The position numbers were made by a program, and so were the translations under genes. This document shows, piece after piece, positions 23,830 to 46,861 of a stretch of DNA of 64,000 nt; within the stretch, counting starts at the first letter, position 1; each line of letters opens with the position of its first letter. Location of the stretch: the NCBI GenBank assembly GCA_042216705.1, contig JBDGTQ010000019.1, positions 3,554-67,553 of the forward strand, written 5' to 3'. The notes under the pieces were generated by a model, which saw only the letters and a list, made by a program, of their open reading frames with translations, was not told where the DNA came from and made no database searches. Source of the stretch: Halolamina sp. Its GTDB lineage: Archaea > Halobacteriota > Halobacteria > Halobacteriales > Haloferacaceae.

Positions 23830-23890
23830 GCTCGGGCGGAAACGGCGGGAAAGATTCTCATGATAGCCCCCGCATCACCACGCAAGGACA

Positions 23891-25519: not shown

Positions 25520-25523
25520 GACG

Positions 25524-26984: not shown

Positions 26985-27060
26985 CGACCGCGAGACGGTG
27001 GGTGCGGCCGCCGCCGAAATGGGTGAGGTCGGCGGCCCGTTCGACTGGCAGGCCACGGTG

Positions 27061-28304: not shown

Positions 28305-28558
28305 CCCGACTGCGGACGCTCCTCACGGGCGCCGTCGTGGTCGTCGGAGCGCTGGCGCTGGCGACGCCGACCGCCGGCGGCGGCCCCGCCACGACGGCCG
28401 AACTCGTCCAGTCGGTCGCGACGACCCACCAGGCCGCGCTCGACGCGCGGCGTCTCGCAGGCGACCCGCTGGTGGCCGTCGCCGGCGGCGCGCTCGGACT
28501 GGGTGCGGGTTTCGTCGGCGGCGGCGTGGTCGCGTACAGCCGTCGGGGGTTGCGATGA
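28301..28558 (+). CDS. small membrane protein (85 aa; N-terminal signal/TM plus C-terminal Gly-rich TM)
   Basis: GTG start overlapping the upstream stop (GTGA), and its stop overlaps the next ATG (ATGA). LLTGAVVVVGALALA and VAVAGGALGLGAGFVGGGVVAY are hydrophobic segments. Confidence 0.6.
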   Translation: MTRLRTLLTGAVVVVGALALATPTAGGGPATTAELVQSVATTHQAALDARRLAGDPLVAVAGGALGLGAGFVGGGVVAYSRRGLR

Positions 28559-32920: not shown

Positions 32921-32926
32921 CCGCGC

Positions 32927-35740
32927 GTGAGAGCCAGCACACCACGACTGCCCGCGGCGGTGACGGCGGCTCTCGTCGCCGCCGTCGTCGCCGGCGCCGC
33001 GATGGGAGGTGCCGTGACGACCCTCGCCGGCGTCGCTCCCGCGAGCGCCACCTCGGCGACGGCTCAGGCCGACGGCGACGTCCGACAGGCGGCCAACGGT
33101 GACCTGGTCGTGGAACTCGACGCCAGCGAGGTGAACGAGAGCAACGCAGTCACCATCGCCGTCGCCGACCAGACGTACGAGCGGCCGGGGTCGGGGAACC
33201 AGACGCTCACGTACACGGTCGCAGCCGGCGAGCTCCCGGACGGCGGCGTCGCGGACACGAACGTGACTGTCACTCAGGACGGGGACCGACTGGCGACGGC
33301 GACGCTCGACCTGCGGTACCTCCGTCTGAGCGACGGCCCGCGGTTTGACGACCGAGGGCGACTGGTGCTCAACGTCGACCGGAGCGTCGGCGTCGCGGGT
33401 GCAACAGTCAACCTGACGGTAACCGGCAACGGCGCGACCGAGCAGGTCCCGGTCGACGTTGGCGCTGACGGGTCGACGGTCCGGCTGGCCCGGACGCAGT
33501 CGTTCGTCGAGACGGCGTTGCTCCCTCCGACGTCGATAACGGTGGGTGATGCCGACGGCGGAGCGACCGTCCCGAACGAGGTCACGGTACCCATCCCAGA
33601 GACGGTGTCGTCGGGGACAACCGTCAGCGTCGTCGGCGACACGGTCGTCGTGGAAAGTCCGCTGCTCGTCGGGGGGGCGGAGTACGACGTGACGGTGCAG
33701 ACGACGGAGCCGAGCGGTGAGTACCAGGACCGTGCGACCGCCGGACAGCCGGATAACGGAATCGCACGACTGACCGTGGAGAACGGAGAGGTCACTGCGG
33801 CCAGCGAACTCACGGCGAGCGTGACGTACCGCGGTACGGACGTCACGTCGGCGACCGCGACGACGACCACCGCTCCGCTGTCGGCCACGCTGGAATATAA
33901 CGGATCCGGCGATAACGCGACGGTGATCAACGTCTCGGGGATGGGCGACGTCGGAACGGTCGAGAAGGTGCTCCTCAAGACAGCTAACGACGTCTACGCC
34001 GTCAACGAGGTGAATCGAGACGGGAGTCTGCTCCGCTTCCCGAATCTGTCGGTCACCTCGGGGCGGTACGAACTCGCTGTGATAGGCGCCGACGGGACGG
34101 CTCGGCTCACCGTCGGCGAGGGAGCACTCGGCGAGGTCGGCGGAGACGAAGCGATATCGTCGGGGAGCGACTCGGGCGTCGGCCGCTCATCCGGCACGTC
34201 GCTGTCGCCGCGGAACGTTCTCGTCGTGCTGGTGGCGCTTGTTCTCGGCGGTGGTGGCGTGTACGCCTTGCTCTCCGTGGCACCTGGAGGGTCGGGCGGA
34301 CGACGCAGGTCACGACGGGCCGGCGGCGCTCGGACCGCCTCGGTGCAGGTGACGGTCCGGGACGAACAGACCGGCCACCCGGTCGACGGGGGCCGCGTCG
34401 TCGCCCGGAAGGCGGGGCGCAACGAGTTCAATACCGAGGGGCCGGCTGCGTCGGCCGAACTCGTCGACGGGACGGCCGACCTCACGCTCGAACCCGGCCC
34501 CAGCTACAGGGTCGAAGCTCAGTACGGCGGCACGACCGCCGTCGAGCGGGTCGAAAATCTCGCGAGCGACCGCCAGTTGTCGATTTCGTTGCCGCCACTG
34601 CGGACGCAGTTGTCCGTCGTCGACGACCGCAGCGAGCCGGTGACCGAGGCGGACGTGTCGTTGACGGGCGCCGACGTGTCGGGCGAGCGTGCCGTCCGGG
34701 ACGATGGCACCATTCAGCTGAAGCTGTCGCCGGTGCAACGCGACATCACTCTCACGGTCGAACACGACCGCCTGACCGACGAGACGGTCCACGTGGACGA
34801 GCCCGCGGACCTGCCGAGCAGAGTCGTGCTCGGCGTCCCGACCGGGTCGGTGACGGCGTCGCTGTCGATAGACGGCGAGGCGACCGACTGCGGGCGGATC
34901 GAGCTCGAACCTGCCGAAGGGTGGTTACGCGACCGCGTCGACGTCGAGTACGCCGAGGTCTCCGACGGGGAGGTCAGCTTCGAGAGCCTCCCGGCCGGGG
35001 CGTACGAGGTGACCACCGCCGTCGGGGGCGAACAGTTCGACACGGCGACGGAGACGGTGCGCGTCCAGAACGGGGGTCGCGCTCGGGCACGGCTGGACGT
35101 CAGCTTCGAGTACGACCTCTCGGCCGACCAGCGGAACCGACTCGCGGAACTGCAGACGGCCGCGGACGACCTCGTGCCGACGAGTCAGCTCGACGGGGCC
35201 GTCCACCGCTACTACGCCAGCGTCGTTCGGTCGCTGGTGAGCGAAATCGAGCGGGTGCCGCGGCTCGGCGCGCGCTTCGCCGGCGCGGACGTCGGCCCCG
35301 ACGAGACCGTCGAGGCGCTGCTGTGGGCCGGCGAGTCGCTGCTGGACATCATCGACCCGGCGCTGAACACGAAGCACAACGTCGACCTCTTCAGCGCGTG
35401 TGCGAACATGCGCCAGGCGGACATCCGCTGGGAAAGTGGTTACGAGCTCGACTCGTTCTTCGAGTTGGCCGCGGCCGACCGCGGCGAACAGCGGTCCCGG
35501 CTGCGGGCGGCGCTGTCCGAGGCCGAGTCGACGGTCGAGGCGGAGCGGTCGGAGGTGACCGTCGCCTCCCCGGCCCGGGCCGTCATGGACGAGCTTCAGT
35601 CGCACGTTCAGGACACGCGGGAGTCCGACGAGGTCCGCCACGCGGCGCTGACCGTCGTCGTCGTCGGCCTGGCCGACGCGGTGGAAACGCTGTTCGACCA
35701 TCCGGAACTCCGGGACCGACTCAACAGGACGGTGTACTGA
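32927..35740 (+). CDS. large bitopic envelope protein: signal peptide, about 420-aa sequon-rich ectodomain, one TM, about 490-aa cytoplasmic domain
   Basis: 937 aa, GTG start. Signal AAVTAALVAAVVAGAAMGGAV. Sequons NESN, NQTL, NVTV, NLTV, NGSG, NATV, NVSG, NLSV all precede the TM VLVVLVALVLGGGGVYALLSV, which is followed by RRRSRRAGGAR (positive-inside). Then beta-sandwich-like repeats (VQVTVRDEQTGHPVDGGRVVA...) and a helical tail. Confidence 0.85.
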   Translation: MRASTPRLPAAVTAALVAAVVAGAAMGGAVTTLAGVAPASATSATAQADGDVRQAANGDLVVELDASEVNESNAVTIAVADQTYERPGSGNQTLTYTVAAGELPDGGVADTNVTVTQDGDRLATATLDLRYLRLSDGPRFDDRGRLVLNVDRSVGVAGATVNLTVTGNGATEQVPVDVGADGSTVRLARTQSFVETALLPPTSITVGDADGGATVPNEVTVPIPETVSSGTTVSVVGDTVVVESPLLVGGAEYDVTVQTTEPSGEYQDRATAGQPDNGIARLTVENGEVTAASELTASVTYRGTDVTSATATTTTAPLSATLEYNGSGDNATVINVSGMGDVGTVEKVLLKTANDVYAVNEVNRDGSLLRFPNLSVTSGRYELAVIGADGTARLTVGEGALGEVGGDEAISSGSDSGVGRSSGTSLSPRNVLVVLVALVLGGGGVYALLSVAPGGSGGRRRSRRAGGARTASVQVTVRDEQTGHPVDGGRVVARKAGRNEFNTEGPAASAELVDGTADLTLEPGPSYRVEAQYGGTTAVERVENLASDRQLSISLPPLRTQLSVVDDRSEPVTEADVSLTGADVSGERAVRDDGTIQLKLSPVQRDITLTVEHDRLTDETVHVDEPADLPSRVVLGVPTGSVTASLSIDGEATDCGRIELEPAEGWLRDRVDVEYAEVSDGEVSFESLPAGAYEVTTAVGGEQFDTATETVRVQNGGRARARLDVSFEYDLSADQRNRLAELQTAADDLVPTSQLDGAVHRYYASVVRSLVSEIERVPRLGARFAGADVGPDETVEALLWAGESLLDIIDPALNTKHNVDLFSACANMRQADIRWESGYELDSFFELAAADRGEQRSRLRAALSEAESTVEAERSEVTVASPARAVMDELQSHVQDTRESDEVRHAALTVVVVGLADAVETLFDHPELRDRLNRTVY

Positions 35741-35742
35741 TC

Positions 35743-36789
35743 ATGGTCCCGACAGACGCACGCGTCGCGGTGGGTGCGGTCGTCGCCCTCGTGTTGACGA
35801 CGACGGTCGCGTCGGGCGCGGTCGCCGGAGCAGCGACGGCGACGACGGCGACGGCGACGACGGCAGTCCCGCCGCCGACGGCGGACGAACTGCTCACGCG
35901 GCTCCAGTCCTTCGAGGAGGAGCCGGCGCTGAGCGAGTACAGCGAGTTGGAGGTGATGCGGAGTCAGGCGGTTTCGACGGTACAGGTCGGCAACGCATCC
36001 CTCGCCGAGCGACGCCGTATCGCCGGCATCGTGACGGTGCTCTCGGAGTTCGTCGAGGCGTACGAGCTGGCCGCCGCCGGCGACCGCATCGAGAGCCTCG
36101 AAGCGGCGAACGAGACGCAGACGGCCATCGACTCGGTGAGGGAAGCGGGCGGCGACCAGTACGCGCGACTGGCGCAGGTGGCTCTGGAGCGGTTCTATCG
36201 CGACCAGGGAGACGAGCTCTACCAGCGCGGACAGGAGTCCACGAACACCACGGCGAAGCTCGAACTGTACGGCGCCGCACGTGAGGCGTACGAGGCCGGC
36301 GGTGCTGACCGACGGCTCGCGGAGATAACGGTGGTTTCCCAGGAGCTCCGAGCCGAGTTCGCCGTCGACAGCCGACGGTTGTCGGGGGCGCTGGCGAACG
36401 CCTCGGCGTTCGTCGCCGACTGTGGCGACGGCTGTGACGGTCCGCTCGCCGCGCTCGCCGCGCTCGGACCGAACGTCTTCGCCGCCTACACCGACGCCCG
36501 TCGCGCCCACGCCGCCGCTCGACAGGCCCAGCGCCTGTCGGACAAACACGGCCTGACCGCCCGCTCCGAGCGCGCCGCGACGCTGGTCGACGAGTCCGGG
36601 ACGGCGCTCGGCAGCTTCGCGGTCGCGAGCGTCCTCCTCGCGCTCGGCTACGGCGGTGCCGTTGCTCTCGTCGGTGCCGTCGTGAGCCACCGGCTCGCAA
36701 CGTGGGCGCTCGAAGTCGAGGGCGCACGAGTCGGACGCATCGTCCCACAGGCGACCGTCGAAGTCGAGCCGGAGGTGACCGAGTCGTGA
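35743..36789 (+). CDS. secreted helical protein with C-terminal TM anchor
   Basis: Internal ATG (MVPTDARVAVGAVVALVLTTTVASGAVAG...) 3 nt after the upstream stop. Sequons NASL, NETQ, NTTA, NASA. C-terminal FAVASVLLALGYGGAVALVGAVV. Confidence 0.75.
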   Translation: MVPTDARVAVGAVVALVLTTTVASGAVAGAATATTATATTAVPPPTADELLTRLQSFEEEPALSEYSELEVMRSQAVSTVQVGNASLAERRRIAGIVTVLSEFVEAYELAAAGDRIESLEAANETQTAIDSVREAGGDQYARLAQVALERFYRDQGDELYQRGQESTNTTAKLELYGAAREAYEAGGADRRLAEITVVSQELRAEFAVDSRRLSGALANASAFVADCGDGCDGPLAALAALGPNVFAAYTDARRAHAAARQAQRLSDKHGLTARSERAATLVDESGTALGSFAVASVLLALGYGGAVALVGAVVSHRLATWALEVEGARVGRIVPQATVEVEPEVTES

Positions 36790-39500
36790 GGGGGCGCCGT
36801 CCGCTCGCGGCGCTGGCGATGGTCGCGCTGCTGGTCGCGGGGGCATCGACGGGCGCCGTCGCCGCGTCCGGGAGCGTCGAACTCGACGCCGCGCTGTCGG
36901 AGCAATCGAAGACCGACGAGCTGACGTTCACTTTCACCCCGTCACAGGACGCGACCGTCACCGCCACCGACCGCATCGAGCGCGCGAACGGTAACGTCAC
37001 GTTCGCGTTCGACGAGTGGGAGCGGACCGACGGCCAGGGGTCGGGGACGAACAACAGCTGGGATGTCGTCGCCGGCGTCGAGTACCGAGTGACGTACGTC
37101 GCCACCGCACGGTCCGGCGCCGCCGAGGACACCTACTTCGGGACGGCGGAGGTCACCGCCAGCGACGGGTCGTTGGTGGCCGACGAGTCGCTGTCGCTGC
37201 AGGTCGACGTGTTGTATCCGCAGTTCGGCTTCGTCGACAGGCAGTCCACCGAGGTCGTGTTCGACGACGCGGACCTGCAATCGGCTTCGAGCCAGGTGTC
37301 GTTTCCGGTGCCGAACTCCGGCCAGGGGGTGATGAAGCCGACGGACGTCTCGGTGAGCAACCTCCCTCAGGGGTTCACCGTCGCCTCGACGGCGCTGCCC
37401 GACACCGTCTCGCCCGGCAGCGAGGGCGAAGGGACCGTCGAACTCGCCGTCGACGACGACGTCAACGAGGGAACATATAGCTTCGACGTGACGGTGACGG
37501 ACTCGCTGGGCAACCAGCGGTCGTTCGCCGTCGACGCCACGGTTTCGAAGCCGCCGATCGCCGACGTCTCCGACACGGAGGCGAACCTCGGCGACGTGCT
37601 CGTCGGGCAGACGAGCCGGAAGACGTTCAGCGTCTCCGAGACGGCCGGATTCGAGGGTCTGAGCGGCGTCACCGTCGACGACTCGTCGGCGGAGCAGGAC
37701 GCCACGCTCGACTTCGAAGGACTGTCGCGGGTGTCGACGCAGCCGAGCGGCTCCGACACCGCGACGGCAGTCGTCGACGTCAGCAGCGACGCGAGACAAC
37801 ACGAGACGCTGTCGTGGACGGTGCAGCTCAGCGGCGAGGCGCCCGACTCGCCGACGCGGCAGGTCGAGTTCGAGGCGCGGGTCATCTATCCGGCGCGACT
37901 GGGCACCGTCGAGGCGTCGTCGACGACGCTTCCTTTCGACGAGCCCCGCGACCAGGTGTCGGCTCAGGACGGGTCGACGACGGTCAGCGTCGAGAACACC
38001 GGGGACCTGGAGATGGACGTCACGGGCGTCGACGTGACGATGCAGAGCGGAAGCCAGGACATCTCCGCCAGGGCCGTCGACGTGCCCGACACGGTGGCCG
38101 GACTCTCCAGCCAGAACGTGACGATACGGTACCGCGCCGACGCGGACACTCCCGAGGGGAGTTACGACGCGGTGGTGACGGTCAGGACGGCCGACGCCGG
38201 GACGCAGACCGTCGAAACCACCGTCGAGGTGACCCAATCGGCCGAGCTCGTCGTCGACGACCGAATGCAGTTCGGCGAGGTGACGATAACCAGCAACCAG
38301 ACCCGGTCCGCAGACGTCGCCGAGCGACTCGGCTACGAGGACGTGACCGGGCTGACGGTCGAGGTGGTATCGGGGCCCGAAGAGTGGCTGACGCTGGTCC
38401 AGCAGCCGCCATCGCGCCTCGACGCCGGGACGGAGTCGTCGCTGGTCGCCGCCGTCCGCTTCGACACCGAGGCCGAACTGTACACGGAGTACACCTGGAC
38501 CATCCGGGTCGACGGCGAGGACGTCGAGCCTCAGACCGTCACCATCTCCGCGACGGCGAAGCCCTACTCCTTCGACCGCGTCACGGAGCCGCTCGGGGAG
38601 TACTCCGACCGAGGCGACTGGCGGGCGGAGACGGCCAGCGGTACGCTCTCGGCGCTTTCGACGCTCGAATCCGATCTCCGCGGCGACGGATCGGTCGCCG
38701 ACGGCGACCTCTCGTCGGCGCTGGCGGCCGGCCGCGCGACGCTACTGTTCATCGAATCCATCGAGGACGCCCGTACCGCCCAAGAGGACGGGGAGTACGC
38801 CGGCGCCCAGGAGAACCTCACCCGAGCGGCGGCAGCCAGGGATCTGCTGGTGCAGTACGTAGACGCGATTCAGTCCGATGAGGTCCGCTCGGCGGCGCGG
38901 GAGTCGCTCCAGGCCGCGAACGCGTCGCTGTCGGAAAGCGTCGCCGCGCAGCGCGGCCACTACCAGGACGTTCTCGCGGACGACCCGAGCGCGTTCGAAC
39001 GGGCCAGGGCCCACCGCGCTCTGGCCAGGCTCGCGACCATCACCGGCGACGAGACGACCGCGAGCGAACACCGCGAGCAGTACGAGGCCGCCTCCGACCG
39101 GTACGTGACGCTGGTGCAGAACGCTTCGACCGCCCGCGCCGAGGCCGGCAGCGCCTGGACCGCCTACCGAGCGGAGGCGACGCTGGTGGTCGCCGGCTAT
39201 CCGCTCGTCCTCAACCCCGCCAGGCTCGACACCACGCTGGCGCGAACGAGCCGAGTGAATCGGCTTTATGCCGAGGCCGAGACGATGTACGCCGAGGCGG
39301 GCGCGACCGCAGAGGCTGAGGCGGTGAACCAGCGCGCCGCGACGGTGTCGAGCCGAGCGACCGTATCGCGGTACGTTCTGTACGGGACGACGGGCGCCTA
39401 CGGCATTGGGTTCCTCGCCGTCGTCGCCAGACTGTCGCTGAACGCCTACGCGTTCGTCCAGGACACGGCCGCGGCCGCGACCGGCGACTTCCTCCGCTGA
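36786..39500 (+). CDS. large secreted sequon-rich surface protein (Ig/CARDB-like repeats plus helical region) with C-terminal TM anchor
   Basis: GTG at 36786 overlapping the upstream stop (GTGA); alternative ATG at 36819. Signal LAALAMVALLVAGASTGAVAASG. Repeated beta-rich modules (VELAVDDDVNEGTYSFDVTVTD, TVSVENTGDLEMDVTGVDV, YDAVVTVRT). Sequons NVTF, NNSW, NQTR, NVTI, NLTR, NASL, NAST. C-terminal GAYGIGFLAVVARLSL. Confidence 0.8.
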   Translation: MRGRRPLAALAMVALLVAGASTGAVAASGSVELDAALSEQSKTDELTFTFTPSQDATVTATDRIERANGNVTFAFDEWERTDGQGSGTNNSWDVVAGVEYRVTYVATARSGAAEDTYFGTAEVTASDGSLVADESLSLQVDVLYPQFGFVDRQSTEVVFDDADLQSASSQVSFPVPNSGQGVMKPTDVSVSNLPQGFTVASTALPDTVSPGSEGEGTVELAVDDDVNEGTYSFDVTVTDSLGNQRSFAVDATVSKPPIADVSDTEANLGDVLVGQTSRKTFSVSETAGFEGLSGVTVDDSSAEQDATLDFEGLSRVSTQPSGSDTATAVVDVSSDARQHETLSWTVQLSGEAPDSPTRQVEFEARVIYPARLGTVEASSTTLPFDEPRDQVSAQDGSTTVSVENTGDLEMDVTGVDVTMQSGSQDISARAVDVPDTVAGLSSQNVTIRYRADADTPEGSYDAVVTVRTADAGTQTVETTVEVTQSAELVVDDRMQFGEVTITSNQTRSADVAERLGYEDVTGLTVEVVSGPEEWLTLVQQPPSRLDAGTESSLVAAVRFDTEAELYTEYTWTIRVDGEDVEPQTVTISATAKPYSFDRVTEPLGEYSDRGDWRAETASGTLSALSTLESDLRGDGSVADGDLSSALAAGRATLLFIESIEDARTAQEDGEYAGAQENLTRAAAARDLLVQYVDAIQSDEVRSAARESLQAANASLSESVAAQRGHYQDVLADDPSAFERARAHRALARLATITGDETTASEHREQYEAASDRYVTLVQNASTARAEAGSAWTAYRAEATLVVAGYPLVLNPARLDTTLARTSRVNRLYAEAETMYAEAGATAEAEAVNQRAATVSSRATVSRYVLYGTTGAYGIGFLAVVARLSLNAYAFVQDTAAAATGDFLR

Positions 39501-39516
39501 CGTCGCCCGCCCGCAC

Positions 39517-42315
39517 TCAGCGGAACCCGGTTGAGAGCCGGTCGTTGACCGGCGGGGGCCCACCGTCGTCGTCGCGCCGAAGCTCCCAATCGTACTCCTC
39601 TCCGCGGTCCGTGCCGTGGAACGACACCGACCCCGAGTCGGGCTCGGGTCCTCGTACTTCGAGGTCGAGGCCGACCGTCACGTCGCCGTCGACGTCCACC
39701 AAGTCGACATCGTCGGTGACCGTCTCGCCCGGCTCGACCGTCTCGAACTGGTAGCCGTCGTAGAGGAAGTCGTCGACGGCCTCGCCGGTCGCCAGCGTCT
39801 CCAGTCCGGTGAGCGATCGGTCGCCGTCGTTGGTCAGTTCCACCTCCAGAAACCCCGTGTCGCCCTCGATACGAGACGCCGCTCCGGCGGCGACGGTCAG
39901 CTCCGACAGCGGGGCGGACTCGGCCCAGCGGTCGACCTCGTGTCGGGGGGCAAGCGTCCGAACTGTCCGCGAGCCGTCGGGGCCGTCGACCTGTAGCTCG
40001 ACGGTGGCGGTCTCGACGTCGGGCGACTGCGTCAACTCGCGCTCGACGAGCCTGACGTCGTCGATTCGTTCGTCGACCGTGACGCGTTCGGCCGTCTCGC
40101 CGACCGTCGCGTGGGCGACGCTCAGTTGCGGGTCGGACCCGTCGAGGACGACGGTGAGTTCGTTCCCGTCGTCGCCTGCGAGCAGGCGCGCGTACGGCGT
40201 TAACGGGTTCTCGGTGACCGGGAGCGTTCGACCGCGGGCGCTGGCCGTCTCCGTCGGCGTCGCCGTTTCGGCCTCGGTCTCGCTTTCGGCCCCGCGGTCG
40301 GATACCGGCCTAGCCTCGGCGGTGAACTGCGGGATGTCGACCTCGTCGTCGTACGAGACGTGACGTCTGGTCGCTCCGGTGGAGTCGTCCGGCTGGATAC
40401 CGACGGTCGTCTCGAACTCTCCGTCGTCGGTCCAGAGCGTCGCCCGCACCGGGTCGTCGCTCTCGTTGGTGACGCGGACCGTCTCCTCGAAGACGTGCCC
40501 GCGGACCGCCCGCTCCGTCGAGAGCTCCCGGACGACCGACAGCGACGACGCCGACTCGTCTTCGTTGGTCGGGACGGATGCCGAGCCGAACGAATCGGCC
40601 GAGTCCGTCGAGTTAGCCGAGGTAGCCGAGGTAGTGGAGTCCGGGGTCGGCGGGCCGGCGTCGCGGCGCGGCTCGGTCGGCGGTTCCACCGTCGGTTCGG
40701 AGACCGCAACCGACTGTGACAGGGTCCCGGCAGCGGTGTCGACGACGACCTCGCGTTCGCCGGCCGCCGTGGTCGGAACCGCGAGGACGGCCGCACCATC
40801 GGCCGGGAGCGTGAGTTCGCGCTCGACGCGCTCGCCGTCGGCCGGCACTCCCTCGACGGCGACGGTGTCGACCGCGGCCGCGGGAACCCCGTTCGAGAGG
40901 TGAACGTCGACGAAGCCGTCTGCGGCGGCGTCGACGCGTATCTCCGTCGGCGTGACGGGGTAGTCGAGCGCGACGGTCCGACGGTCGACCTCGGCGGCGT
41001 CGACGGCCACCTCGCCGGTCGGCAACGAGCGGCTGAGGCCGACGGTCTCAGTCTCTCCGGGGGGGAGGCCGCCGAGGACGGTCCCGTCGACGGTTACCTC
41101 CGAGAGCGGTGCTTCGCCGGCGTTCTCGACGGTCACGTCGACGTCGACGGCGCCGTGGTCGACCGCCGTCGCCGTCGCCTCGGAGACCAGTGCGGTCTCG
41201 TTTTCGACCACCGGGAGCGTGACACTTCGCTCGTCGTCCGGCTCCCGGACGGTCACCGTCACCGCCTCGGCGTCCGCTCGAATCGACCGCACGCCGACGC
41301 GTCGGGTCGTCGACTCCTCGGGGCCGAGGGTGGCGTCGAGCCGGGTCGTCGACAGGGTCGCCCCCTCGGCCGTCACCTCGATGGTCGCGTCGACCGACGT
41401 CGGCGCCTCGTTGGAGACGGTCATCGGGATAGCGCCCGTGGACTCGTCCACCTCGTTGACGTCGACGGCGACGCCGACTTCGTCGGTCGCGTCGACGGTT
41501 CGGGAGAACACGCTCACCGTCTCCTCGGTGACCCGACAGGCGACCCCGCCGTCCGCGCTAACCACGATTCGGTCGCCGGGGTCCAGTCCGCCGACGTCGA
41601 CGGTGTCGCCCTCGACGCCGAGGGCGAAAATGTCGCTGTCGGCGTGACACAGCAGCTCTCTCGACCCCCGTGGCGCGAGCCAGTCGACGGCGACGTCGGT
41701 CGACCACCGGCGGTCGCCGTCCGACCCGAGCGCGACCGTTCGACCGTCCCGTAACGCCGTGACGACGACGTCGTCGACGACGCCGACCGCGTCGATGGCA
41801 CCGTCCAGCGTCTCGTCGGCCAGAACCTCCCCGTTCCAGTCGACGACCGAGACGAACGACCAGGCGGCGACGACGATGAACGGCTCCGCGGCCACCACCG
41901 CCGGGTCCGCCGTCACGTCCGAGTGAGGCTGCTCGAACCGGCGGCGCTCGACTCCGGTCTCGCCGTCGAGGACGGCGAGCGCGGCGTCTTCCGTCCGGAC
42001 CACGACCCGGGTGGTCGCCGGGTCGACGTGAACGGCGGCGGCGCCGAGGTCGTCGACGCGCCAGACCCTGCTTCCCGCCTGACTGTAGGCCGTGAGTCCG
42101 GCCTCGGTGAGGGCGTACACCCGGTCGCTCAGTGCCACGTCCGTGACCGACTCCCCCTGAGCGACCGTCCGCCGGTCGCGGGAGTCGGCGACGACGACGC
42201 CGTCGTCGGTGCCGAGCGCGACCGCGTCGGTGCCGACCGCCGTCGCGCGGACGGCGGGAGCCTCGAACGCCCCTCGCTGAGCGAAGCGTCCCTCCGTGCG
42301 CTCCCCGGCGTTCAT
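39517..42315 (-). CDS. large signal-less protein: N-terminal beta-propeller-like repeats plus Ig/CARDB-like repeat array
   Basis: 932 aa, ATG overlapping the AAA gene stop (ATGA). No hydrophobic N-terminus or TM. The first 270 aa or so show repeated 'D..VVV...DG.V.AL....G...W' strands (PQQ/WD-like). These are followed by VDVDVTVENAGEAPLSEVTVDG-type CARDB-like modules and a Ser/Thr/Pro linker. Confidence 0.8.
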   Translation of the reverse strand: MNAGERTEGRFAQRGAFEAPAVRATAVGTDAVALGTDDGVVVADSRDRRTVAQGESVTDVALSDRVYALTEAGLTAYSQAGSRVWRVDDLGAAAVHVDPATTRVVVRTEDAALAVLDGETGVERRRFEQPHSDVTADPAVVAAEPFIVVAAWSFVSVVDWNGEVLADETLDGAIDAVGVVDDVVVTALRDGRTVALGSDGDRRWSTDVAVDWLAPRGSRELLCHADSDIFALGVEGDTVDVGGLDPGDRIVVSADGGVACRVTEETVSVFSRTVDATDEVGVAVDVNEVDESTGAIPMTVSNEAPTSVDATIEVTAEGATLSTTRLDATLGPEESTTRRVGVRSIRADAEAVTVTVREPDDERSVTLPVVENETALVSEATATAVDHGAVDVDVTVENAGEAPLSEVTVDGTVLGGLPPGETETVGLSRSLPTGEVAVDAAEVDRRTVALDYPVTPTEIRVDAAADGFVDVHLSNGVPAAAVDTVAVEGVPADGERVERELTLPADGAAVLAVPTTAAGEREVVVDTAAGTLSQSVAVSEPTVEPPTEPRRDAGPPTPDSTTSATSANSTDSADSFGSASVPTNEDESASSLSVVRELSTERAVRGHVFEETVRVTNESDDPVRATLWTDDGEFETTVGIQPDDSTGATRRHVSYDDEVDIPQFTAEARPVSDRGAESETEAETATPTETASARGRTLPVTENPLTPYARLLAGDDGNELTVVLDGSDPQLSVAHATVGETAERVTVDERIDDVRLVERELTQSPDVETATVELQVDGPDGSRTVRTLAPRHEVDRWAESAPLSELTVAAGAASRIEGDTGFLEVELTNDGDRSLTGLETLATGEAVDDFLYDGYQFETVEPGETVTDDVDLVDVDGDVTVGLDLEVRGPEPDSGSVSFHGTDRGEEYDWELRRDDDGGPPPVNDRLSTGFR

Positions 42316-43916
42316 TCGGGGCGGTCACCTCCGTCGTCGAAGGTCCCCGCCGGGACCATCCCGAGGTCCACTGCCTGCTCCTGGACGTACTCCTTCATCT
42401 CCGGGTACCCTTCGAGCTCCGCCGCCTCGTTGAGGACGCTCGAAACGTACTGACTGACCGTCTTGGGCTCGGTCCCCCGGAGCTGGTCGAGCAGGTACTC
42501 CGTGTCCGGGACGATCGGGTCGGAATCGTCGTGAACGATGCTCTCGACGAGTTCGCGCTGGAGCTCGCTGCCGAGGATGCGGTCCGCGACCTCGGCGGGC
42601 GTGTAGCCGACCGACGCCTCGCCAAGCCGCTCGAAGTCCACGTCGTCGCGCTCGGCGATGCGTCCGAGCGACTTCCGCCAGACGTCCGCCATCACCGTCT
42701 CGTCCGGCTGAGGGATGAACTGCTGAATCGGGAACCGCCGAGTCGCCGCCGGATCGATGGAGAAGGGCATGTTCGTCGCGCCGATGACCAGCAGGTTGTC
42801 CTCGACGTCGTTCATTTCCTGAAGGAAGGCGTTCGTGAGCGCTCGCTCGTGGCGCTGGAGGTTGTCGTCCGAGCGGTCCGGAATAAGCGTCTCCACCTCG
42901 TCGAAAAAGAGCACGCCGAAGCCCCCGTTCCCGACCGCCTCGTGGGCCTGCTCGAACGCCGCGTGGACGTTCTTTTCGGACTCGCCGGCGTACTTCGAGA
43001 CCACGTCGCTGCCCCGAACCTCCAGAAAGACGACGTTGCCGTAGCTCTCTTCGATGTCCGTGTTGTACTTGGCCTCGTGGGCGATGGCCTCCGAGACGAG
43101 CGTCTTCCCACACCCAGGCGGCCCGTACAGGAGCATCCCGCCGCCGCGGTCGACGAACTCCTCACCGTACCGGTCGAGAACCTCCTCGCGCACCGTCGGG
43201 TCGAACAGCGACAGCACCATCTGGGCCGTGCGCCGGACCTCCGACAGACCGGCGACGTCCTCCTCGAAGCTCACCTGCGGATTCGTCGGCGTGATGTCGA
43301 TTGAGGCCTCGGCCTCCTCGCCGGGAGCGCCGCCGGAGCCGTTGCCGCCGGAGCCGTTGCCGCCGGAGCCGTTGCCGCCGGAGCCGTCGCCGCCGGAGCC
43401 GTCGCCGCCGGGGTCGAACTCCGCCTCGGCGGTTTCGGTCGTGAACTCGAACTCCGTCCCGACGTCGACCCGGAGCGTGGTCGCGTCCGCCGGTTCCATC
43501 GCGGTGACGACGAACTCGACGGTTTGAGAGCCGAGGTCGTAGCGCTCGTGTATCGGGTGCAACAGCGCGTTTCGGTCCTGGAGCGCCGTGGCGAGGGCGG
43601 ATTCGTCAGCGCCGAGCGGATTGAGTTCGACGTGGGTCGCGCTTCGGACGGAGCTGCGCTGGACGGAGTCGTCGACGTAGAACGGCTGCTGTTCGATGCC
43701 GCCGAACAGCGCAGCCGCCTCCGGAGCGATGCGGGCTTTCCCCTTGATCGTCGAGGCGACGCGGTCCATCTCGGTTTCGACCTCAAAGAACGCCTTCCGG
43801 TTCCCGCAGCGGACGCGGACGACGTCGGCGCTCGACTGGACAGTGCTCTGTCCGACGGTGACGTGTGAGGTCGGCTGGTCGGGGGTCTCTATCGGAGTGA
43901 GGTTGAACGAGCTCAT
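42312..43916 (-). CDS. AAA+ ATPase, single AAA domain with beta-rich N-domain (CDC48-N-like) and Vps4/spastin-like SRH
   Basis: Internal ATG (MSSFNLTPIE...) of track ORF 42312..44165. Walker A LLYGPPGCGKTL, pore loop SKYAGESEK, Walker B VLFFDEVE, SRH ATNMPFSIDPAATRRFPIQQFIPQPD. G(D/N)GSG x5 linker between the N-domain and the ATPase. Confidence 0.9.
   Translation of the reverse strand: MSSFNLTPIETPDQPTSHVTVGQSTVQSSADVVRVRCGNRKAFFEVETEMDRVASTIKGKARIAPEAAALFGGIEQQPFYVDDSVQRSSVRSATHVELNPLGADESALATALQDRNALLHPIHERYDLGSQTVEFVVTAMEPADATTLRVDVGTEFEFTTETAEAEFDPGGDGSGGDGSGGNGSGGNGSGGNGSGGAPGEEAEASIDITPTNPQVSFEEDVAGLSEVRRTAQMVLSLFDPTVREEVLDRYGEEFVDRGGGMLLYGPPGCGKTLVSEAIAHEAKYNTDIEESYGNVVFLEVRGSDVVSKYAGESEKNVHAAFEQAHEAVGNGGFGVLFFDEVETLIPDRSDDNLQRHERALTNAFLQEMNDVEDNLLVIGATNMPFSIDPAATRRFPIQQFIPQPDETVMADVWRKSLGRIAERDDVDFERLGEASVGYTPAEVADRILGSELQRELVESIVHDDSDPIVPDTEYLLDQLRGTEPKTVSQYVSSVLNEAAELEGYPEMKEYVQEQAVDLGMVPAGTFDDGGDRPE
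43329..43403 (-). repeat. five tandem copies of a 15-nt unit (gccgccggagccgtt/c) encoding (GDGSG)2(GNGSG)3 linker of the AAA ATPase
   Basis: Read directly from the sequence: three identical ...gtt units followed by two ...gtc units. In frame inside the CDS. Confidence 0.9.
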
Positions 43917-44545
43917 GATTCGGTTGTCTGAATGACTCGTTTGAGGAACGATTCGACGCGGTCGTAGTCGGCATCGACCAACCCGTCGGGCGGGTACAAC
44001 CACAGCATCTCGGCGGTCAACCTGTCGAGGACGCCGGCGAACGTCGCGAACGCCTCGGCGATGTCGCCGAACGTCGCCGGGAGATGCTCCCCGGCGACGA
44101 GGTCGAGTCGCCGTCGGAGGCGCCGGCACTCCCCTGCGAGCTCGCGGAGCCGCTCGCTCGTCCACGGGAGCACGACGTACCAGTTCGCGGTCGTCGGGCC
44201 GTCCCGGCGGAGGGGCACGATCAACGACCCCGTCGGACGGTCACAGCGGTCGTCCTGACACGCGCGGTCAACCGCCTCTGCGACGGCGTCGGTCGGGGCG
44301 CGGTCGTCGTACCGCGCGTCGAGGATCTGCCTCACCGCGAGGTCGGCCGCGTCGGTCGGCTGTGACTCCAGTCGCGGCGGCGGGCCGATGCCGGCCGTCA
44401 GCGTTCCCAACTCCCACAGCACGTCCGTGAGGCGCTGGGCTCGCTTCCACGCCGCATCCTGGTCGCCCAGCCGGCGCCGCTCGTGAAGCACGCTCAGTTC
44501 CTCCCGGAGGACACGAACCCTGTCGGTCCACGAAGCGGCGTACAT
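43913..44545 (-). CDS. hypothetical protein (210 aa)
   Basis: ATG start. Its stop overlaps the AAA ATPase start (ATGA). Normal composition, no recognisable motif. Confidence 0.65.
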   Translation of the reverse strand: MYAASWTDRVRVLREELSVLHERRRLGDQDAAWKRAQRLTDVLWELGTLTAGIGPPPRLESQPTDAADLAVRQILDARYDDRAPTDAVAEAVDRACQDDRCDRPTGSLIVPLRRDGPTTANWYVVLPWTSERLRELAGECRRLRRRLDLVAGEHLPATFGDIAEAFATFAGVLDRLTAEMLWLYPPDGLVDADYDRVESFLKRVIQTTES

Positions 44546-44556
44546 AGTCGTCGAGC

Positions 44557-45573
44557 TCAGTTGGTCTGGCTCTGTGCGAGGTCGGGGCCTTCTATCTGTT
44601 CGGCCTGCTCGCTGAGCTCATCGATCTGGTCGCCGCCGACGCCGATGTCGTCCAAGAACCCGCCGAGGGACTCCTCTTTCATCCGATCGGCGGGGGCCAT
44701 CGTGTCGCTCATCGCCGAGAGGAAGCTCGAGTACTGCTCCGAGAGGTCGACGAGGTCTTCCGGGAAGATGGCCTCGCCGAGCGCGAGTTCGCGGAACTCC
44801 TCGCGGCGCTTTTTCATCTCCGCTCGCATCCTCTCGAACCGCTCCATCACGAACCCGAGTTCCTCAGCGTTGTCCGCCACTTCGGTGACGTCGACACCCT
44901 CGGCCTCCTCCATCGACTCGTGGAAGTGATACTGCTTGCGCAGGTTCTGAACGCGCTGACGTTCCTGGTCGCTGAGCTCGTTCGGCGACCGGTTGCCGAC
45001 GATGCGGTCGATCTCCTGGCGAATCTCGTCCATCCGCTGTGCGGAGTCGACGTCGGTGGTGGCCGCCTCGGTCTCGCGTTCGCGCTGCTCGAAGCGGTTT
45101 TTCGCCTGCTCGACCCGGTCGCGGGCGACGTCGATGCGTTCGATGCAGGTGTCGAACATCGCCGCCCAGTTGTTGTACATCCTAGTGTAGCCGCTCTCTT
45201 TGATGTTCTTGAAATCCTTCAGGACGGTCACCCGGTCGTCCTCGGTCTCGATGATGTCCTGCTCGTGGAGGTAGTCGATGACGGCCTCGGCCTGGTAGCC
45301 GGTGGAGGCGAACTCGTCGTCGGCCTCGACCAGCGCCGACTGGGCCTCTTGACGGCCGATGACGGCCTCGCCGTCGTCGTTGATGTCGAGGGCCTCCCCA
45401 AGCTCGTAGTCCATCAGGTCGCTGATGAGCTCCTCCCAGTTGCCCTCCTCCTCTTTGTCCTCGTTGCGTTCGGCGATGGACGCCTCGAACCGGACCGGTT
45501 CGTCGTTCTGGCTCCGCGGGTACGCGGTAACTGTGCCGTCGTCGTTCGGCTGGAAGTCGGTGAACGTTCGCAT
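44557..45573 (-). CDS. hypothetical coiled-coil protein (338 aa) with acidic tail
   Basis: ATG start 3 nt after the upstream gene's stop. Central heptad-like Arg/Glu/Gln-rich helices (ERIDVARDRVEQAKNRFEQRERETE..., RMRAEMKKRREEFRELA). Acidic C-terminal DDIGVGGDQIDELSEQAEQIEG. Visibly more A/T-containing codons than neighbouring genes. Confidence 0.8.
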   Translation of the reverse strand: MRTFTDFQPNDDGTVTAYPRSQNDEPVRFEASIAERNEDKEEEGNWEELISDLMDYELGEALDINDDGEAVIGRQEAQSALVEADDEFASTGYQAEAVIDYLHEQDIIETEDDRVTVLKDFKNIKESGYTRMYNNWAAMFDTCIERIDVARDRVEQAKNRFEQRERETEAATTDVDSAQRMDEIRQEIDRIVGNRSPNELSDQERQRVQNLRKQYHFHESMEEAEGVDVTEVADNAEELGFVMERFERMRAEMKKRREEFRELALGEAIFPEDLVDLSEQYSSFLSAMSDTMAPADRMKEESLGGFLDDIGVGGDQIDELSEQAEQIEGPDLAQSQTN

Positions 45574-45575
45574 TG

Positions 45576-46700
45576 TTAGAAGTTCTCCTGGATCAGCTCT
45601 TCTGCCCGGTCCCGAACGCGGTCGCGGGCGTATCCGTTGCCCGCTTCCGTCGTCGCGAGCCTGAGGTCCTCGATGTCGGATTCGATCTCCTCGAGCATGC
45701 TCGACGGGGTGTTCGCCGTCGTGTCCGCGAGCACCGGTCGCGTCAGCTCCTCGGCCTGTGCCTCTATCTGCTCGTCGAAGGGGTCGCGATGCACCGCGAG
45801 ATCGGTGCGTTCCAGCGTCTCGATCTGTGGGGCGTCCTTGCTCGCGAACTCCTCGCGGACGGCCGAGAGAACGTCACTCTCGGAGGTGTCGCCGCGGGTC
45901 GACCGCGCCGCCGACAACACGGGCGTTCGGGCCTCGATTTCGTCGCTCAGCAGCGACTCGTACTCCCGTTCGGGGAGCAGGTAGCCGGCGTCGTCGAACG
46001 CCGCCACGATGTCGTCCTCGATCTCCGAGGCGATGTGGCGAGCGAACTCCGACAGCGCGGCCCGAACGAGGTACTCGCCGTCCATGTCGACGATGTACCC
46101 CTCGCTCTGGAGATATGAGATGACGTCCGAGGTGGCAGCGACCGAGATGGCGTCTTCCAGCTGGTCATGTGAAATCTTGCCGTGAATGCTGCGTCGGCGA
46201 AGCTTGTCGTCGAGGTCCCCGCCGCCCAGATGCTCCCGGAGCTTCTTTCCGACGATGTAGTACTCGCGGTTCCCCGCCGAGATGCGCTCGACGAGTTCTC
46301 GGCCGCGAAGCTCGCTCGCGAAGAAGCCGGCGTCGTCGTGGGAGATGTTGAACGCCTCTCGTAAGTCCTCGGTCGTGACCACGATGCGGTCTCTGAACAC
46401 GTCCTCCAGCTTCTCCTTGATGCCGGCTTCCCCTCGACCGAAGGGGTCGCGGTAGTAGACGCCCGACCGGATGCGCTCGAAGGCGAAGGTCTCGTCTTCG
46501 GCGATCGACTGCAGTGCCTCCTTCAGCTGCGACGTCGACGGCGAACTCGCCTTCAGGACGCTCTTTTCCTGGGCCTCGTAGCGGTCCCGGAGCCGGTCGC
46601 GCTCGGCGTCGACGTACACGAACCCGAAGCTGTCCTGTGCGATCGTCCTGGCGACGTCCGCCAGGGCGTCGCGGTCGACTGGACGAAGAGGCATGTCCAT
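45576..46700 (-). CDS. hypothetical protein (374 aa), possibly containing winged-helix-like segments
   Basis: Internal ATG (MDMPLRPVDRD...) of track ORF 45576..46826. TATA-like 'aagtttagtatt' (minus strand, 46716-46727) about 20 nt upstream. First gene of the minus-strand operon. Confidence 0.75.
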   Translation of the reverse strand: MDMPLRPVDRDALADVARTIAQDSFGFVYVDAERDRLRDRYEAQEKSVLKASSPSTSQLKEALQSIAEDETFAFERIRSGVYYRDPFGRGEAGIKEKLEDVFRDRIVVTTEDLREAFNISHDDAGFFASELRGRELVERISAGNREYYIVGKKLREHLGGGDLDDKLRRRSIHGKISHDQLEDAISVAATSDVISYLQSEGYIVDMDGEYLVRAALSEFARHIASEIEDDIVAAFDDAGYLLPEREYESLLSDEIEARTPVLSAARSTRGDTSESDVLSAVREEFASKDAPQIETLERTDLAVHRDPFDEQIEAQAEELTRPVLADTTANTPSSMLEEIESDIEDLRLATTEAGNGYARDRVRDRAEELIQENF

Positions 46701-46861
46701 CAAACGACGCGTCGGAATACTAAACTTTGCCCCTCTTTCACAACCGCGCCGGGGAAAGAGCGAACTCGTCCCGAGCGAATCGACGCCTGCCCTTCCCTCG
46801 GCCGCCGACCGCCCGAGCGCCATCACCCTTTAACGACCGCGACGGCTACGAGACACTTGTA
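46701..46861. promoter_or_regulatory. divergent promoter region (minus-strand AAA operon / amidohydrolase)
   Basis: 161-nt non-coding gap with TATA-like elements on both strands: aatactaaactt at 46716-46727 and ccctttaacga about 22 nt before ATG 46862. Confidence 0.4.

Follow-up and report, generated by a model that had tools for sequence, protein, structure and literature searches.

The locus analyzed here raises the question of what five minus-strand genes that converge on a tubulin-like gene cluster in Halolamina sp. encode, and whether the two neighbors work together. The window, that is, the whole stretch of DNA analyzed, comprises 64,000 nt (GCA_042216705.1, contig JBDGTQ010000019.1, 3,554-67,553 of the forward strand). 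We confirmed that the five genes, designated g1 to g5, form a real operon at 39517-46694: all five ORFs show a coding-type composition (GC3 of 0.84-0.89 in a genome of ~70% GC), and their junctions are as tight as an earlier sequence-only reading had described. The TAA stop of g1 is separated from the g2 ATG by 2 nt, the TGA stop of g2 from the g3 ATG by 11 nt, and ATGA overlaps join g3 to g4 and g4 to g5, so g4 is translationally coupled to both. As also described, g5 ends 16 nt from the end of the plus-strand operon, with the spacer at 39501-39516 between the two convergent stop codons (39517-39519 for g5 and 39498-39500). The TATA-like box proposed upstream of the first gene, AAAGTTTAGTATT (46716-46728, minus strand), has a core, TTTAGTA (46718-46724), that precedes the start of g1 by 23 nt. 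In eight of nine orthologous loci from other genera (L081-L086, L089, and L090), a TTTAGTA or TTTACTA core was kept ahead of the g1 ATG, at a distance of 23-24 nt. Against the general background of haloarchaeal promoters, a box placed this way implies that the g1 transcript is leaderless or nearly so. The first gene itself was correctly recognized but its start was not, because conservation places it at the second ATG (46694, MPLRP...) and not at 46700. All five products are soluble and acidic and therefore cytoplasmic.

The adjoining cluster is indeed tubulin-like. It is an 11-gene plus-strand operon (21937-39500), defined by PF00091 matches, hydrophobic segments, and orthologous loci, whose content includes seven membrane proteins and three tubulin paralogues with PF00091 (tubulin/FtsZ) matches, Tub1 (23891-25519), Tub2 (27138-28304), and Tub3 (31718-32920). 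The other genes are t01 (21937-23829; four TM segments plus a long helical domain), t03 (25524-26984), t05 (28301-28558; an 85-aa membrane protein), t06 (28555-29643), t07 (29640-31718; two TM segments), t09 (32927-35740; a signal peptide, a mid-protein TM segment, and a cytoplasmic half), t10 (about 35743-36789), and t11 (about 36783-39500; a signal peptide, Ig-like domains, and a C-terminal TM segment). We placed the starts of t06, t10, and t11 by inference, using the hydrophobic stretches of the translated ORFs and the gene overlaps of orthologous loci. Several of the membrane proteins are predicted to carry large Ig-like domains outside the cell. In particular, the signal peptide and C-terminal TM segment were present in all t11 orthologues examined, and most of this second 'adaptin-like' protein is predicted to be extracellular and membrane-anchored. 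The complete 11-gene order was kept on H. salinarum R1 plasmid PHS2, on a Halobaculum magnesiiphilum plasmid, and in Halopenitus persicus.

Judged by sequence comparison, the five minus-strand genes are a module of the already published 'Halo_adaptin' ESCRT-like system of Halobacteria, which has hitherto been described computationally only (Makarova et al., mBio 2024, PMC10936438). The Halobiforma lacisalsi locus (L082) matches CHINAEXTREME_RS05830-05870 gene for gene, which Table S2 of that study labels arCOG11740, arCOG11741, arCOG15282, Vps4, and adaptin-like. In addition, g4 shares 54% identity, across 97% of its length, with P0057 of H. lacisalsi AJ5, listed there as the Halo_adaptin Vps4. 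The link between the ATPase operon and tubulin is not new: the same authors had already connected the closest tubulin gene with this operon, which they interpreted as a sorting system of the ESCRT type.

The sequence-only reading had suggested a functional link between the two operons while allowing that the ATPase operon could equally be an independent system. The content and order of g1-g5 were kept in Haloarcula, Halobiforma, Halorubrum, Halopenitus, Halobacterium, Halobaculum, Halosimplex, Natronomonas, and Halorussus, and in every sufficiently long metagenome contig except the rearranged low-GC contigs L115 and L116, in which g1 was present and g2-g5 were not detectable. Adjacency is not limited to this genome: the two operons adjoin each other in 10 of the 11 genera sampled, convergently in all nine genera above except Halopenitus, and in 16 of 18 distinct metagenome contigs extending past g5. 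They are also convergent and adjacent in Haloquadratum (Table S2, PMC10936438). At least 18 named organisms are common to the ATPase and Tub3 match lists. In a distant variant of 48% GC, the ATPase module adjoins a homologue of t01, the first gene of the tubulin operon. In two related metagenome contigs, L096 and L098, t11 was missing after g5. Since the genes on either side are different in each genome, the 16-gene block moves as a unit. It is very unlikely that the operons are functionally independent and neighbors merely through a shared mobile island. Although plasmids carry the block in Halobacterium, three Halobaculum species, and Natrinema, ISH8 copies border it in H. salinarum R1, and it is split in Halopenitus, H. 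persicus retains both operons intact even though they lie apart, and adjacency survives 50-70% protein divergence, differing flanks, and, in divergent contigs, other relative orientations. Taking these results together, a functional link is strongly supported and an independent system is now unlikely; adjacency and co-occurrence indicate such a link, not physical contact.

The product of g4 (42312-43916, minus strand; 534 aa) is an AAA+ ATPase, as had been proposed, with a single AAA domain (aa 261-402, 42711-43136; PF00004, E = 6.7e-31) that follows an N-domain and a Gly-rich linker and precedes a conserved C-terminal helical extension. Proteins from no fewer than 15 haloarchaeal genera share >50% identity with g4 across about 97% of its length. 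Walker A (GPPGCGKT, aa 265-272), the aromatic pore loop (KYAG, aa 308-311), Walker B (FFDE, aa 337-340), and the SRH arginines R393 and R394 are invariant across 19 orthologues; with these elements intact, g4 is equipped as a substrate-threading unfoldase or disassemblase. The linker is encoded by a perfect 15-bp tandem repeat of 5.5 copies (43329-43411; Tandem Repeats Finder, 98% matches, score 152), which specifies (G-N/D-G-S-G)n between the N-domain and the AAA domain and differs in length among orthologues. The N-domain (about aa 1-172, 43401-43916) matched CDC48_2 in 6 of the 19 orthologues (best E 0.0023), and published HHpred searches relate such N-domains to Ufd1 and VAT-N (PMC10936438). 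No Pfam MIT match was found in g4; on these matches, a Cdc48/Ufd1-type N-domain stands in place of MIT. The remark that the SRH is Vps4-like also proved sound, as the g4 SRH (GATNMPFSIDPAATRRFPIQQFIPQPD) aligned without gaps to those of CdvC/Vps4 and lacks the RPGR(F/L)D form of archaeal Cdc48 D1 and D2. Pairwise scores were 116-134 bits for Cdc48 D2, 97-111 for D1, and 110-117 for CdvC.

These features bear on two further explanations. In one, developed from the sequence-only reading, g4 would act like katanin or spastin and sever or disassemble filaments made of the three tubulin-like paralogues. The Vps4/meiotic-clade SRH, the aromatic pore loop, the shared cytoplasmic location of the five products and the tubulins, and the co-occurrence and adjacency of the operons all fit this proposal, but g4 has a Cdc48/Ufd1-like N-domain and neither MIT nor a microtubule-binding domain, poly-acidic C-terminal tails are absent from the translations of the tubulin paralogues in the window, and the conserved partners g1, g2, g3, and g5 have no counterpart among severing enzymes. 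We consider it unlikely. Least probable is a role in anti-phage defence, with an IetA/TRIP13-like AAA ATPase at the core of the system. The PADLOC IetA (8.5e-27), TRIP13, and NCBIfam IteA models do match g4, and the distribution is patchy and partly plasmid-borne; however, the matches are confined to the generic AAA core, where Cdc48, CdvC, and proteasomal ATPases score similarly, g1, g2, g3, and g5 gave no significant match in PADLOC, the operon lacks effectors such as a protease or nuclease, and the conserved partner is a tubulin/membrane operon.

The description of g1 (45576-46694, minus strand; 372 aa), an acidic cytoplasmic protein, as a winged-helix protein was supported by its AlphaFold2 model (pLDDT 90.4, pTM 0.77), which shows three to four tandem helix-helix-helix-hairpin units. 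No TM segment was found in it. Its top Foldseek PDB matches were tandem winged-helix proteins (UFL1, 1.5e-6; SelB C-terminus, 1e-3), and the ESCRT-II Vps22/Vps36 chains 2zme and 3cuq matched as well (6e-3 to 5e-2, probability 0.99-1.0). The family is narrow, with 43 clusters among 1.84 billion proteins and an orthologue identity of 35-55%. The second product, g2 (44557-45573, minus strand; 338 aa, pI 4.2), is equivalent to arCOG11741. Orthologue alignment revealed a conserved N-terminal domain followed by a long charged helical/coiled-coil region, and its coiled-coil label held, because only assorted coiled-coil Pfam families matched its members. The N-terminal domain is probably also winged-helix: published HHpred gave 67% with the Crp wHTH (PMC10936438), and hhalign of residues 68-117 against a g1 unit gave a weak match (E 0.035, probability 1.5%).

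The last product, g5 (39517-42315, minus strand; 932 aa), is cytoplasmic and was published as an 'adaptin (TRAP-beta) appendage domain protein' (PMC10936438). Although the window copy has no Pfam match, its identification as a propeller/Ig protein was upheld by orthologues that share 28-34% identity with it along as much as about 950 aa: six of the nine scanned matched PQQ_2 above the curated cut-off, and the H. salinarum copy matched CARDB. An N-terminal PQQ/BamB-like beta-propeller is followed by Ig-like (CARDB-type) domains, an acidic Ser/Thr-rich linker, and a conserved STGF-type C-terminus. Neither a signal peptide nor a TM segment was found in g5 or in five orthologues. In a divergent variant, a HEAT/Adaptin_N-like solenoid replaces the propeller protein at the g5 position.

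Directly upstream of the ATPase gene, g3 (43913-44545, minus strand; 210 aa) encodes an all-helical protein labelled 'ESCRT-III-like' (arCOG15282) in the published system (PMC10936438). It is poorly conserved (orthologues 24-30% identical), with P55, P57, R100, P111-L112, and N121-W122 invariant. In a strict ESCRT explanation, g3 would be a highly diverged, membrane-polymerizing ESCRT-III protein recycled by a Vps4-like g4, with g1 and g2 as ESCRT-II-like components and g5 and t11 as adaptin-like cargo binders, yielding vesicles or protein sorting. The order of winged-helix protein, small helical protein, and Vps4-type ATPase mirrors other archaeal ESCRT operons, the ATPase falls within arCOG01307/Vps4 in the published tree (PMC10936438), and the Vps4-form SRH, the ESCRT-II matches of g1, and the solenoid in place of g5 point the same way. 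However, the confident AlphaFold2 model of g3 (seven helices, pLDDT 87.9, pTM 0.85) had no Foldseek PDB match at E <= 0.001 (best TM <= 0.33), and ESCRT-III, PspA, and Vipp1 were absent among its best 50 listed matches. None of 31 g3 members matched Snf7 or PspA in Pfam, hhalign against two bona fide CdvB proteins gave a probability of 0.1%, and published HHpred against PspA reached only 33% (PMC10936438). Bona fide crenarchaeal CdvB proteins are likewise missed by the Pfam Snf7 model, and therefore the sequence negatives weigh little. On the predicted structure, the ESCRT-III assignment was not reproduced; because neither structure search nor profile comparison gave g3 any ESCRT-III/PspA similarity, the 'ESCRT-like' label is left to depend on the clade of the ATPase, the presence of winged-helix proteins, and the gene order. 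Moreover, g4 lacks MIT, so the canonical MIT-MIM contact is absent, the mostly extracellular t11 predicted here is a poor fit to a cytoplasmic adaptor, and the strict coupling with three tubulin paralogues is left unexplained. We regard this explanation as rather unlikely.

We instead think it probable that g1-g5 are the cytoplasmic ATPase/adaptor module of Halo_adaptin and act with the 11-gene tubulin/membrane operon as one 16-gene unit, and we infer that the mechanism is ATP-driven remodelling of a membrane-associated assembly. Hexameric g4 would dock the adaptors g1, g2, g3, and g5 through its Cdc48-like N-domain and spend ATP on dismantling or recycling an assembly of proteins at the cytoplasmic side of the membrane, one that the partner operon may build. 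The polymer threaded by g4 may be g3, one of the tubulin paralogues, or the cytoplasmic tails of t09 and t11, and the output could be a membrane-remodelling or surface-protein-sorting machine.

The proposed unit resembles several known systems in part. With crenarchaeal Cdv (CdvA-CdvB-CdvC) and eukaryotic ESCRT-II/III/Vps4 it shares a single-AAA ATPase with a Vps4-form SRH, a helical protein encoded immediately upstream of it, and a winged-helix protein with ESCRT-II chains among its structural matches; unlike them, it has no MIT, no CdvA, and no detectable Snf7/PspA fold in g3, but a Cdc48-like N-domain, an obligatory propeller-Ig partner, and a tubulin/membrane operon, and its hosts divide with FtsZ. 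Cdc48/p97/VAT are similar in the N-domain, the aromatic pore loop, and an AAA core that scores no worse against Cdc48 D2 than against CdvC, whereas g4 has one AAA domain in place of D1 plus D2, an SRH of another form than RPGR(F/L)D, and a long Gly-rich linker. Katanin and spastin have in common with g4 a single AAA ring, the SRH type, and a tie to tubulin-family proteins, genetic in this case, but g4 has four dedicated partners and no MIT or microtubule-binding region. The plus-strand operon fits 'Halo.Tub', non-canonical halobacterial tubulin-family genes arranged quasi-tandemly, in several copies, amid unknown coiled-coil genes, a sameness suggested by description and not by accession; the passages of that account concerned do not mention an AAA ATPase operon (Santana-Molina et al. 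2023, PMC9871819). The closest likeness is to Halo_adaptin, with the same five genes in the same order, an arCOG01307 Vps4-like ATPase with a Cdc48/VAT-like N-domain, and the same convergent neighbors (an Ig-like protein, the membrane protein arCOG12846, another Ig-like protein, and a CetZ-like tubulin), and the five-gene operon itself shows no essential difference. While the Table S2 neighborhoods stop at the nearest tubulin gene (PMC10936438), the link here spans the whole 11-gene operon with its three tubulin paralogues, and this linked unit of 16 genes is the addition of the present work, together with a g3 without an ESCRT-III match, a second 'adaptin-like' protein predicted to be secreted and anchored through its signal peptide and TM segment, and the HEAT-solenoid variant.

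A GC3 filter picked out five minus-strand genes with GC3 values of 0.84-0.89, namely g1 (45576-46694, a tandem winged-helix protein), g2 (44557-45573, a winged-helix/coiled-coil protein), g3 (43913-44545, a 210-aa helical protein), g4 (42312-43916, an AAA+ ATPase), and g5 (39517-42315, a propeller/Ig protein). The sequence-only reading had described them as a tightly packed operon converging on a tubulin-like plus-strand cluster (genes t01-t11, including Tub1-Tub3), and coding composition, junctions, and the promoter element confirmed that this feature is real. The genes are separated by gaps of 2 nt and 11 nt and then by two ATGA overlaps, and the stop codons of g5 and of the plus-strand operon face each other 16 nt apart, as claimed. 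The TATA-like element ahead of g1 has the core TTTAGTA, lies 23-24 nt upstream of the start codon, and recurs in the orthologous loci of eight other genera. Because of this spacing and a conserved MPLRP N-terminus, the start of g1, originally placed at 46700, was moved to 46694. In haloarchaeal promoters, such a TATA-to-start spacing points to a leaderless transcript, and the same is therefore indicated for g1. A 167-bp intergenic region (46695-46861) separates g1 from a divergent amidohydrolase gene (PF01979), whose start is likely the ATG at 46862 and not the upstream TTG at 46727 in the ORF list.

We examined the linkage of the two operons in 11 genera and in 47 metagenome contigs carrying g1. 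The gene order g1-g5 and similar gene sizes were found in the window and in the orthologous loci L081-L086 and L088-L090. The plus-strand genes nearest to g5, namely Tub3, t09, t10, and t11, are convergent to it here, and they are so in 10 of the 11 genera sampled; the arrangement occurs in Haloarcula, Halobiforma, Halorubrum, Halosimplex, Natronomonas, Halorussus, and Haloquadratum as well as on plasmid PHS2 of Halobacterium salinarum R1 and on a plasmid of Halobaculum magnesiiphilum. Every genome has its own set of genes around the two-operon block. The five-gene operon of Halopenitus persicus lies beside aglB, and an intact 11-gene tubulin operon is located elsewhere on the same chromosome. 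Among the metagenome contigs, the g1-g5 order was kept wherever the sequence reached, except in the low-GC contigs L115 and L116, and t11 follows g5 convergently in 16 of the 18 distinct informative contigs. Given these counts and the retention of both operons in Halopenitus, a chance neighbourhood of the two operons is unlikely, and the idea that they adjoin only in this genome fails. The five-gene module is evolutionarily locked to the tubulin/membrane operon, which supports the functional link proposed from juxtaposition; the link had been described before under another mechanistic name, that of the ESCRT-like "Halo_adaptin" system of Halobacteria (Makarova et al., mBio 2024; PMC10936438, preprint PMC11188069).

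Several loci showed departures of their own. In Halopenitus persicus (L084), a pair of canonical CetZ genes (1778-4165; Tubulin plus CetZ_C) is found approximately 3 kb upstream of the five-gene operon, which may be a coincidence. The related metagenome contigs L096 and L098 have g1-g5 with t11 absent after g5; approximately 1.2-1.6 kb devoid of a convincing ORF is followed by an unrelated 499-aa gene, possibly reflecting an insertion or a split like that of Halopenitus. In L115 and L116 (GC 0.41-0.43), g1 is head-to-head with t01, the tubulin operon (Tub2, t07, Tub3, t09) runs the opposite way, and the 2-3 kb that follow g1 downstream contain no detectable g2-g5 ORFs; these could be a rearranged or decaying copy.

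The plus-strand cluster (21937-39500) is a tightly packed operon of 11 genes, with overlaps of the GTGA/ATGA type at 28301, 28555, 29640, and 31718; three of the genes code for PF00091 tubulin/FtsZ paralogues and seven for predicted membrane proteins. Its gene order is kept in H. salinarum, Halobaculum, and Halopenitus. In the translations, Tub2 and Tub3 have the GGGTG nucleotide-binding signature and Tub1 has KGTGCGS at that place. The neighbourhoods in Table S2 of Makarova et al. (PMC10936438) stop at the nearest tubulin gene and take in only the last four genes of this operon; the complete 11-gene operon as the linked unit is new beyond that paper. By description, the operon probably corresponds to the quasi-tandem "Halo.Tub" genes of Santana-Molina et al. 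(2023; PMC9871819). The last gene product, t11, is the second published "adaptin-like" protein. A signal-like segment at the N-terminus and a transmembrane segment at the C-terminus were present in every orthologue examined; most of t11 is therefore predicted to lie outside the cell, another point that goes beyond the published description, and the protein looks more like a cargo or surface component than a cytoplasmic adaptor. When the 15 window proteins were compared with one another by BLASTP, g5 and t11 showed no similarity, so at this level the two "adaptin-like" proteins cannot be recognised as paralogues. Most g5 orthologues have a conserved (L/V)STGF-type motif at their C-terminus (window 39520-39540), and the short cytoplasmic tail of t11 (window 39480-39497) ends in (S/T)G(D/N/E)FL (both in L081, L084-L087, and L089). 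The two tails are alike and, speculatively, might be docking peptides for a common partner.

The ATPase g4 carries a single PF00004 AAA domain (E = 6.7e-31) in a protein of 534 aa. Walker A, the KYAG pore loop, Walker B, and the two arginines of the second region of homology (SRH) are invariant across 19 orthologues, so that g4 has, as judged from its sequence, the complete motif set of an active substrate-threading AAA+ ring, and it is translationally coupled to its cytoplasmic partner proteins. No signal peptide or transmembrane segment was found in any of the g1-g5 products, all of which are acidic. The SRH of g4 reads ATRRFPIQQFIPQPD. It aligned without gaps to CdvC/Vps4 sequences taken from crenarchaeal and thaumarchaeal loci and differs from the longer RPGRFD or RPGRLD form present in both D1 and D2 of archaeal Cdc48 (five of five proteins); the early remark that the SRH is Vps4-like was correct. 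The CdvB, CdvC, and Cdc48 controls were some of the loci from a genome-contig scan seeded by the generic AAA motifs YGPPGCGK and VIGATNMP; the scan with the g4 alignment returned, on such motifs, only unrelated bacterial and archaeal AAA loci. Overall similarity is balanced, with pairwise scores of 116-134 bits for Cdc48 D2 versus 110-117 bits for CdvC. Among PDB matches, Cdc48/p97/VAT came first as two-domain sums, their Cdc48 chains aligning twice to one and the same g4 region, and the best single-domain score was that of Vps4. The N-terminal 170 residues are Cdc48-like, and the N-domain matched CDC48_2 in 6 of the 19 orthologues. Exact-sequence look-ups returned no record for the window ATPase or for its counterpart from H. 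salinarum. The window is part of a metagenome-assembled genome of Halolamina sp., and g3, g4, and Tub3 are 100% identical to NCBI entries. A near-perfect 15-bp tandem repeat inside g4 (window 43329-43411, minus strand; 5.5 copies, 98% matches) codes for the Gly-rich linker joining the N-domain to the AAA domain. Linker length varies among orthologues, and slippage seems to drive this variation.

Taking these features together, we consider it probable that the ATPase module docks partners and disassembles or recycles a membrane-face assembly with the tubulin operon. In this mechanism, g4 would bind its partner proteins through the Cdc48-like N-domain and would then take apart or recycle the assembly on the cytoplasmic side of the membrane. 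The katanin-like version of this mechanism, put forward in the sequence-only reading, makes the tubulin paralogues the substrate of g4. It has the Vps4-type SRH and the conserved tubulin neighbourhood on its side; against it, Pfam detected no N-terminal MIT or microtubule-binding region in g4, and MIT is absent from the 25 Pfam families most matched across its 19 orthologues. We regard this version as unlikely.

A strict ESCRT version of the same mechanism takes g3 as the polymer. Its evidence comes partly from g1, whose AlphaFold2 model (pLDDT 90.4) consists of tandem winged-helix units. Foldseek matches of this model in the PDB were tandem winged-helix proteins, namely UFL1, SelB, and ESCRT-II Vps22/Vps36; the ESCRT-II chains (2zme_A/B, 3cuq_A/B) matched at E values of 6e-3 to 5e-2, and UFL1 and SelB scored better. 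Searches of PDB sequences with HMM profiles of g1 and g2 yielded chance-level matches only. In the g2 protein, the N-terminal domain is conserved and a long region resembles a coiled coil; g3 is helical and weakly conserved. Helical proteins are hard for fold search. The g3 model (pLDDT 87.9, pTM 0.85) found nothing in the PDB at E <= 0.001 by Foldseek, with no ESCRT-III, PspA, or Vipp1 structure among the best 50 matches. Members of g3 and g2 did not match the Snf7/PspA Pfam models, and hhalign of each against a thin two-sequence CdvB profile gave probabilities below 1%. The sequence negatives on g3 carry little weight, since the Pfam Snf7 model fails to detect bona fide CdvB proteins as well. 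In the published description, g3 was assigned to ESCRT-III on an HHpred probability of 33%, and this was not reproduced by a confidently predicted model that retrieves no ESCRT-III, PspA, or Vipp1 structure. We regard the strict ESCRT version as unlikely, if slightly less so than the katanin-like one. As a side observation, a representative search with g1 returned two very large proteins, P0298 (2178 aa) and P0305 (2230 aa), with 6-8 repeats resembling residues 24-83 of g1, its first winged-helix-like unit. PQQ_2 propeller and CARDB-type Ig domains were found in g5 orthologues; g1, g2, g3, and g5 of the window matched nothing in Pfam, NCBIfam, or PADLOC. An anti-phage defence reading was rejected, as the IetA/TRIP13 matches cover the AAA core only, no effector is present, and the other four proteins had no significant PADLOC match.

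The block also varies in composition and location. In L091 (4284-15501 of a contig from Logan SRR24908267, GC 0.48), which holds a divergent variant of the module, profile HMMs confirmed g1-, g2-, g3-, and g4-like genes. At the position of the propeller-Ig protein g5 there is a convergent gene for a HEAT-repeat solenoid of 1416 aa, which scored 81.9 bits with HEAT_2 and 36.9 bits with Adaptin_N (cut-off, 37); next comes a homologue of t01, with which the tubulin operon begins. A metagenome scan with this t01-like protein gave no match. The entire 16-gene block lies on plasmid PHS2 of H. salinarum R1 (NC_010369.1, 160000-194963), with ISH8 transposase genes to one side and a small ORF (WP_000124630.1) that brackets it in two copies; further plasmid-borne copies occur in Natrinema sp. 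SYSU A 869 and three species of Halobaculum. The plasmid location, ISH8, and the bracketing ORF copies suggest that the block is horizontally mobile.

Tentatively, and with a probability we put well below even, the 16 genes might form one horizontally mobile, envelope-spanning machine. Its three tubulin-like GTPases would be anchored to membrane proteins whose large Ig-like domains lie outside the cell, and the Vps4/Cdc48-hybrid ATPase, acting with winged-helix and propeller (or HEAT-solenoid) adaptors, would remodel tubulin-like polymers or the membrane anchors and not an ESCRT-III polymer. If true, an archaeal AAA ATPase would be partnered with tubulins in a way analogous to katanin/spastin and microtubules, and the machine would combine propeller and solenoid adaptor elements like eukaryotic coat proteins. 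More generally, g4 joins a Cdc48-type N-domain to a Vps4-type AAA ring and is hard-wired to three non-canonical tubulin paralogues. Its mechanism, if worked out, would show how an ESCRT-like or Cdc48-like motor and tubulin-family filaments are used jointly at the membrane of an FtsZ-dividing archaeon, a matter of relevance to how membrane trafficking and cytoskeleton remodelling evolved in eukaryotes. As PHS2 of the genetically tractable H. salinarum R1 carries a complete copy, the system can be tested directly.

Compared with known systems, the module differs from a strict ESCRT system in that no Snf7/PspA/Vipp1 fold was detected in g3 by model search, Pfam, and hhalign and in that g4 has no MIT domain for the MIM motifs of ESCRT-III. 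Unlike Cdc48/p97/VAT, g4 has one AAA domain instead of tandem D1 and D2 and does not have the RPGR(F/L)D form of the SRH; unlike katanin and spastin, it lacks the N-terminal MIT and microtubule-binding region; and unlike IetAS-type defence systems, it has no protease or other effector partner. Halo_adaptin comprises a Vps4-like ATPase that has no MIT and whose N-domain resembles VAT/Cdc48, a protein encoded upstream of it and weakly similar to PspA, two winged-helix proteins (arCOG11741 and arCOG11740), and two "adaptin-like" propeller/Ig proteins, and Makarova et al. regarded the combination of a Cdc48-type N-domain and a Vps4-type ring as a possible relic of the origin of Vps4 from Cdc48 (PMC10936438). 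Our literature search found no experimental follow-up to this description. The window agrees with it in a Vps4-clade (arCOG01307) ATPase having no MIT and a Cdc48/VAT/Ufd1-like N-domain, in a duplicated winged-helix (Vps36-like) proximal protein (g1, by AlphaFold2 and Foldseek), in the g1-g5 order of arCOG11740, arCOG11741, arCOG15282, ATPase, and propeller-Ig protein given in Table S2, and in the convergent Ig-like proteins, membrane protein arCOG12846, and CetZ-like tubulin. Furthermore, g4 is 54% identical over 97% of its length to P0057, the Halobiforma lacisalsi ATPase listed as Halo_adaptin Vps4, and the locus recovered through P0057 (L082) is CHINAEXTREME_RS05830-05870, an entry of Table S2. 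Therefore, the g1-g5 operon is a further orthologue of this computationally described, already known system.
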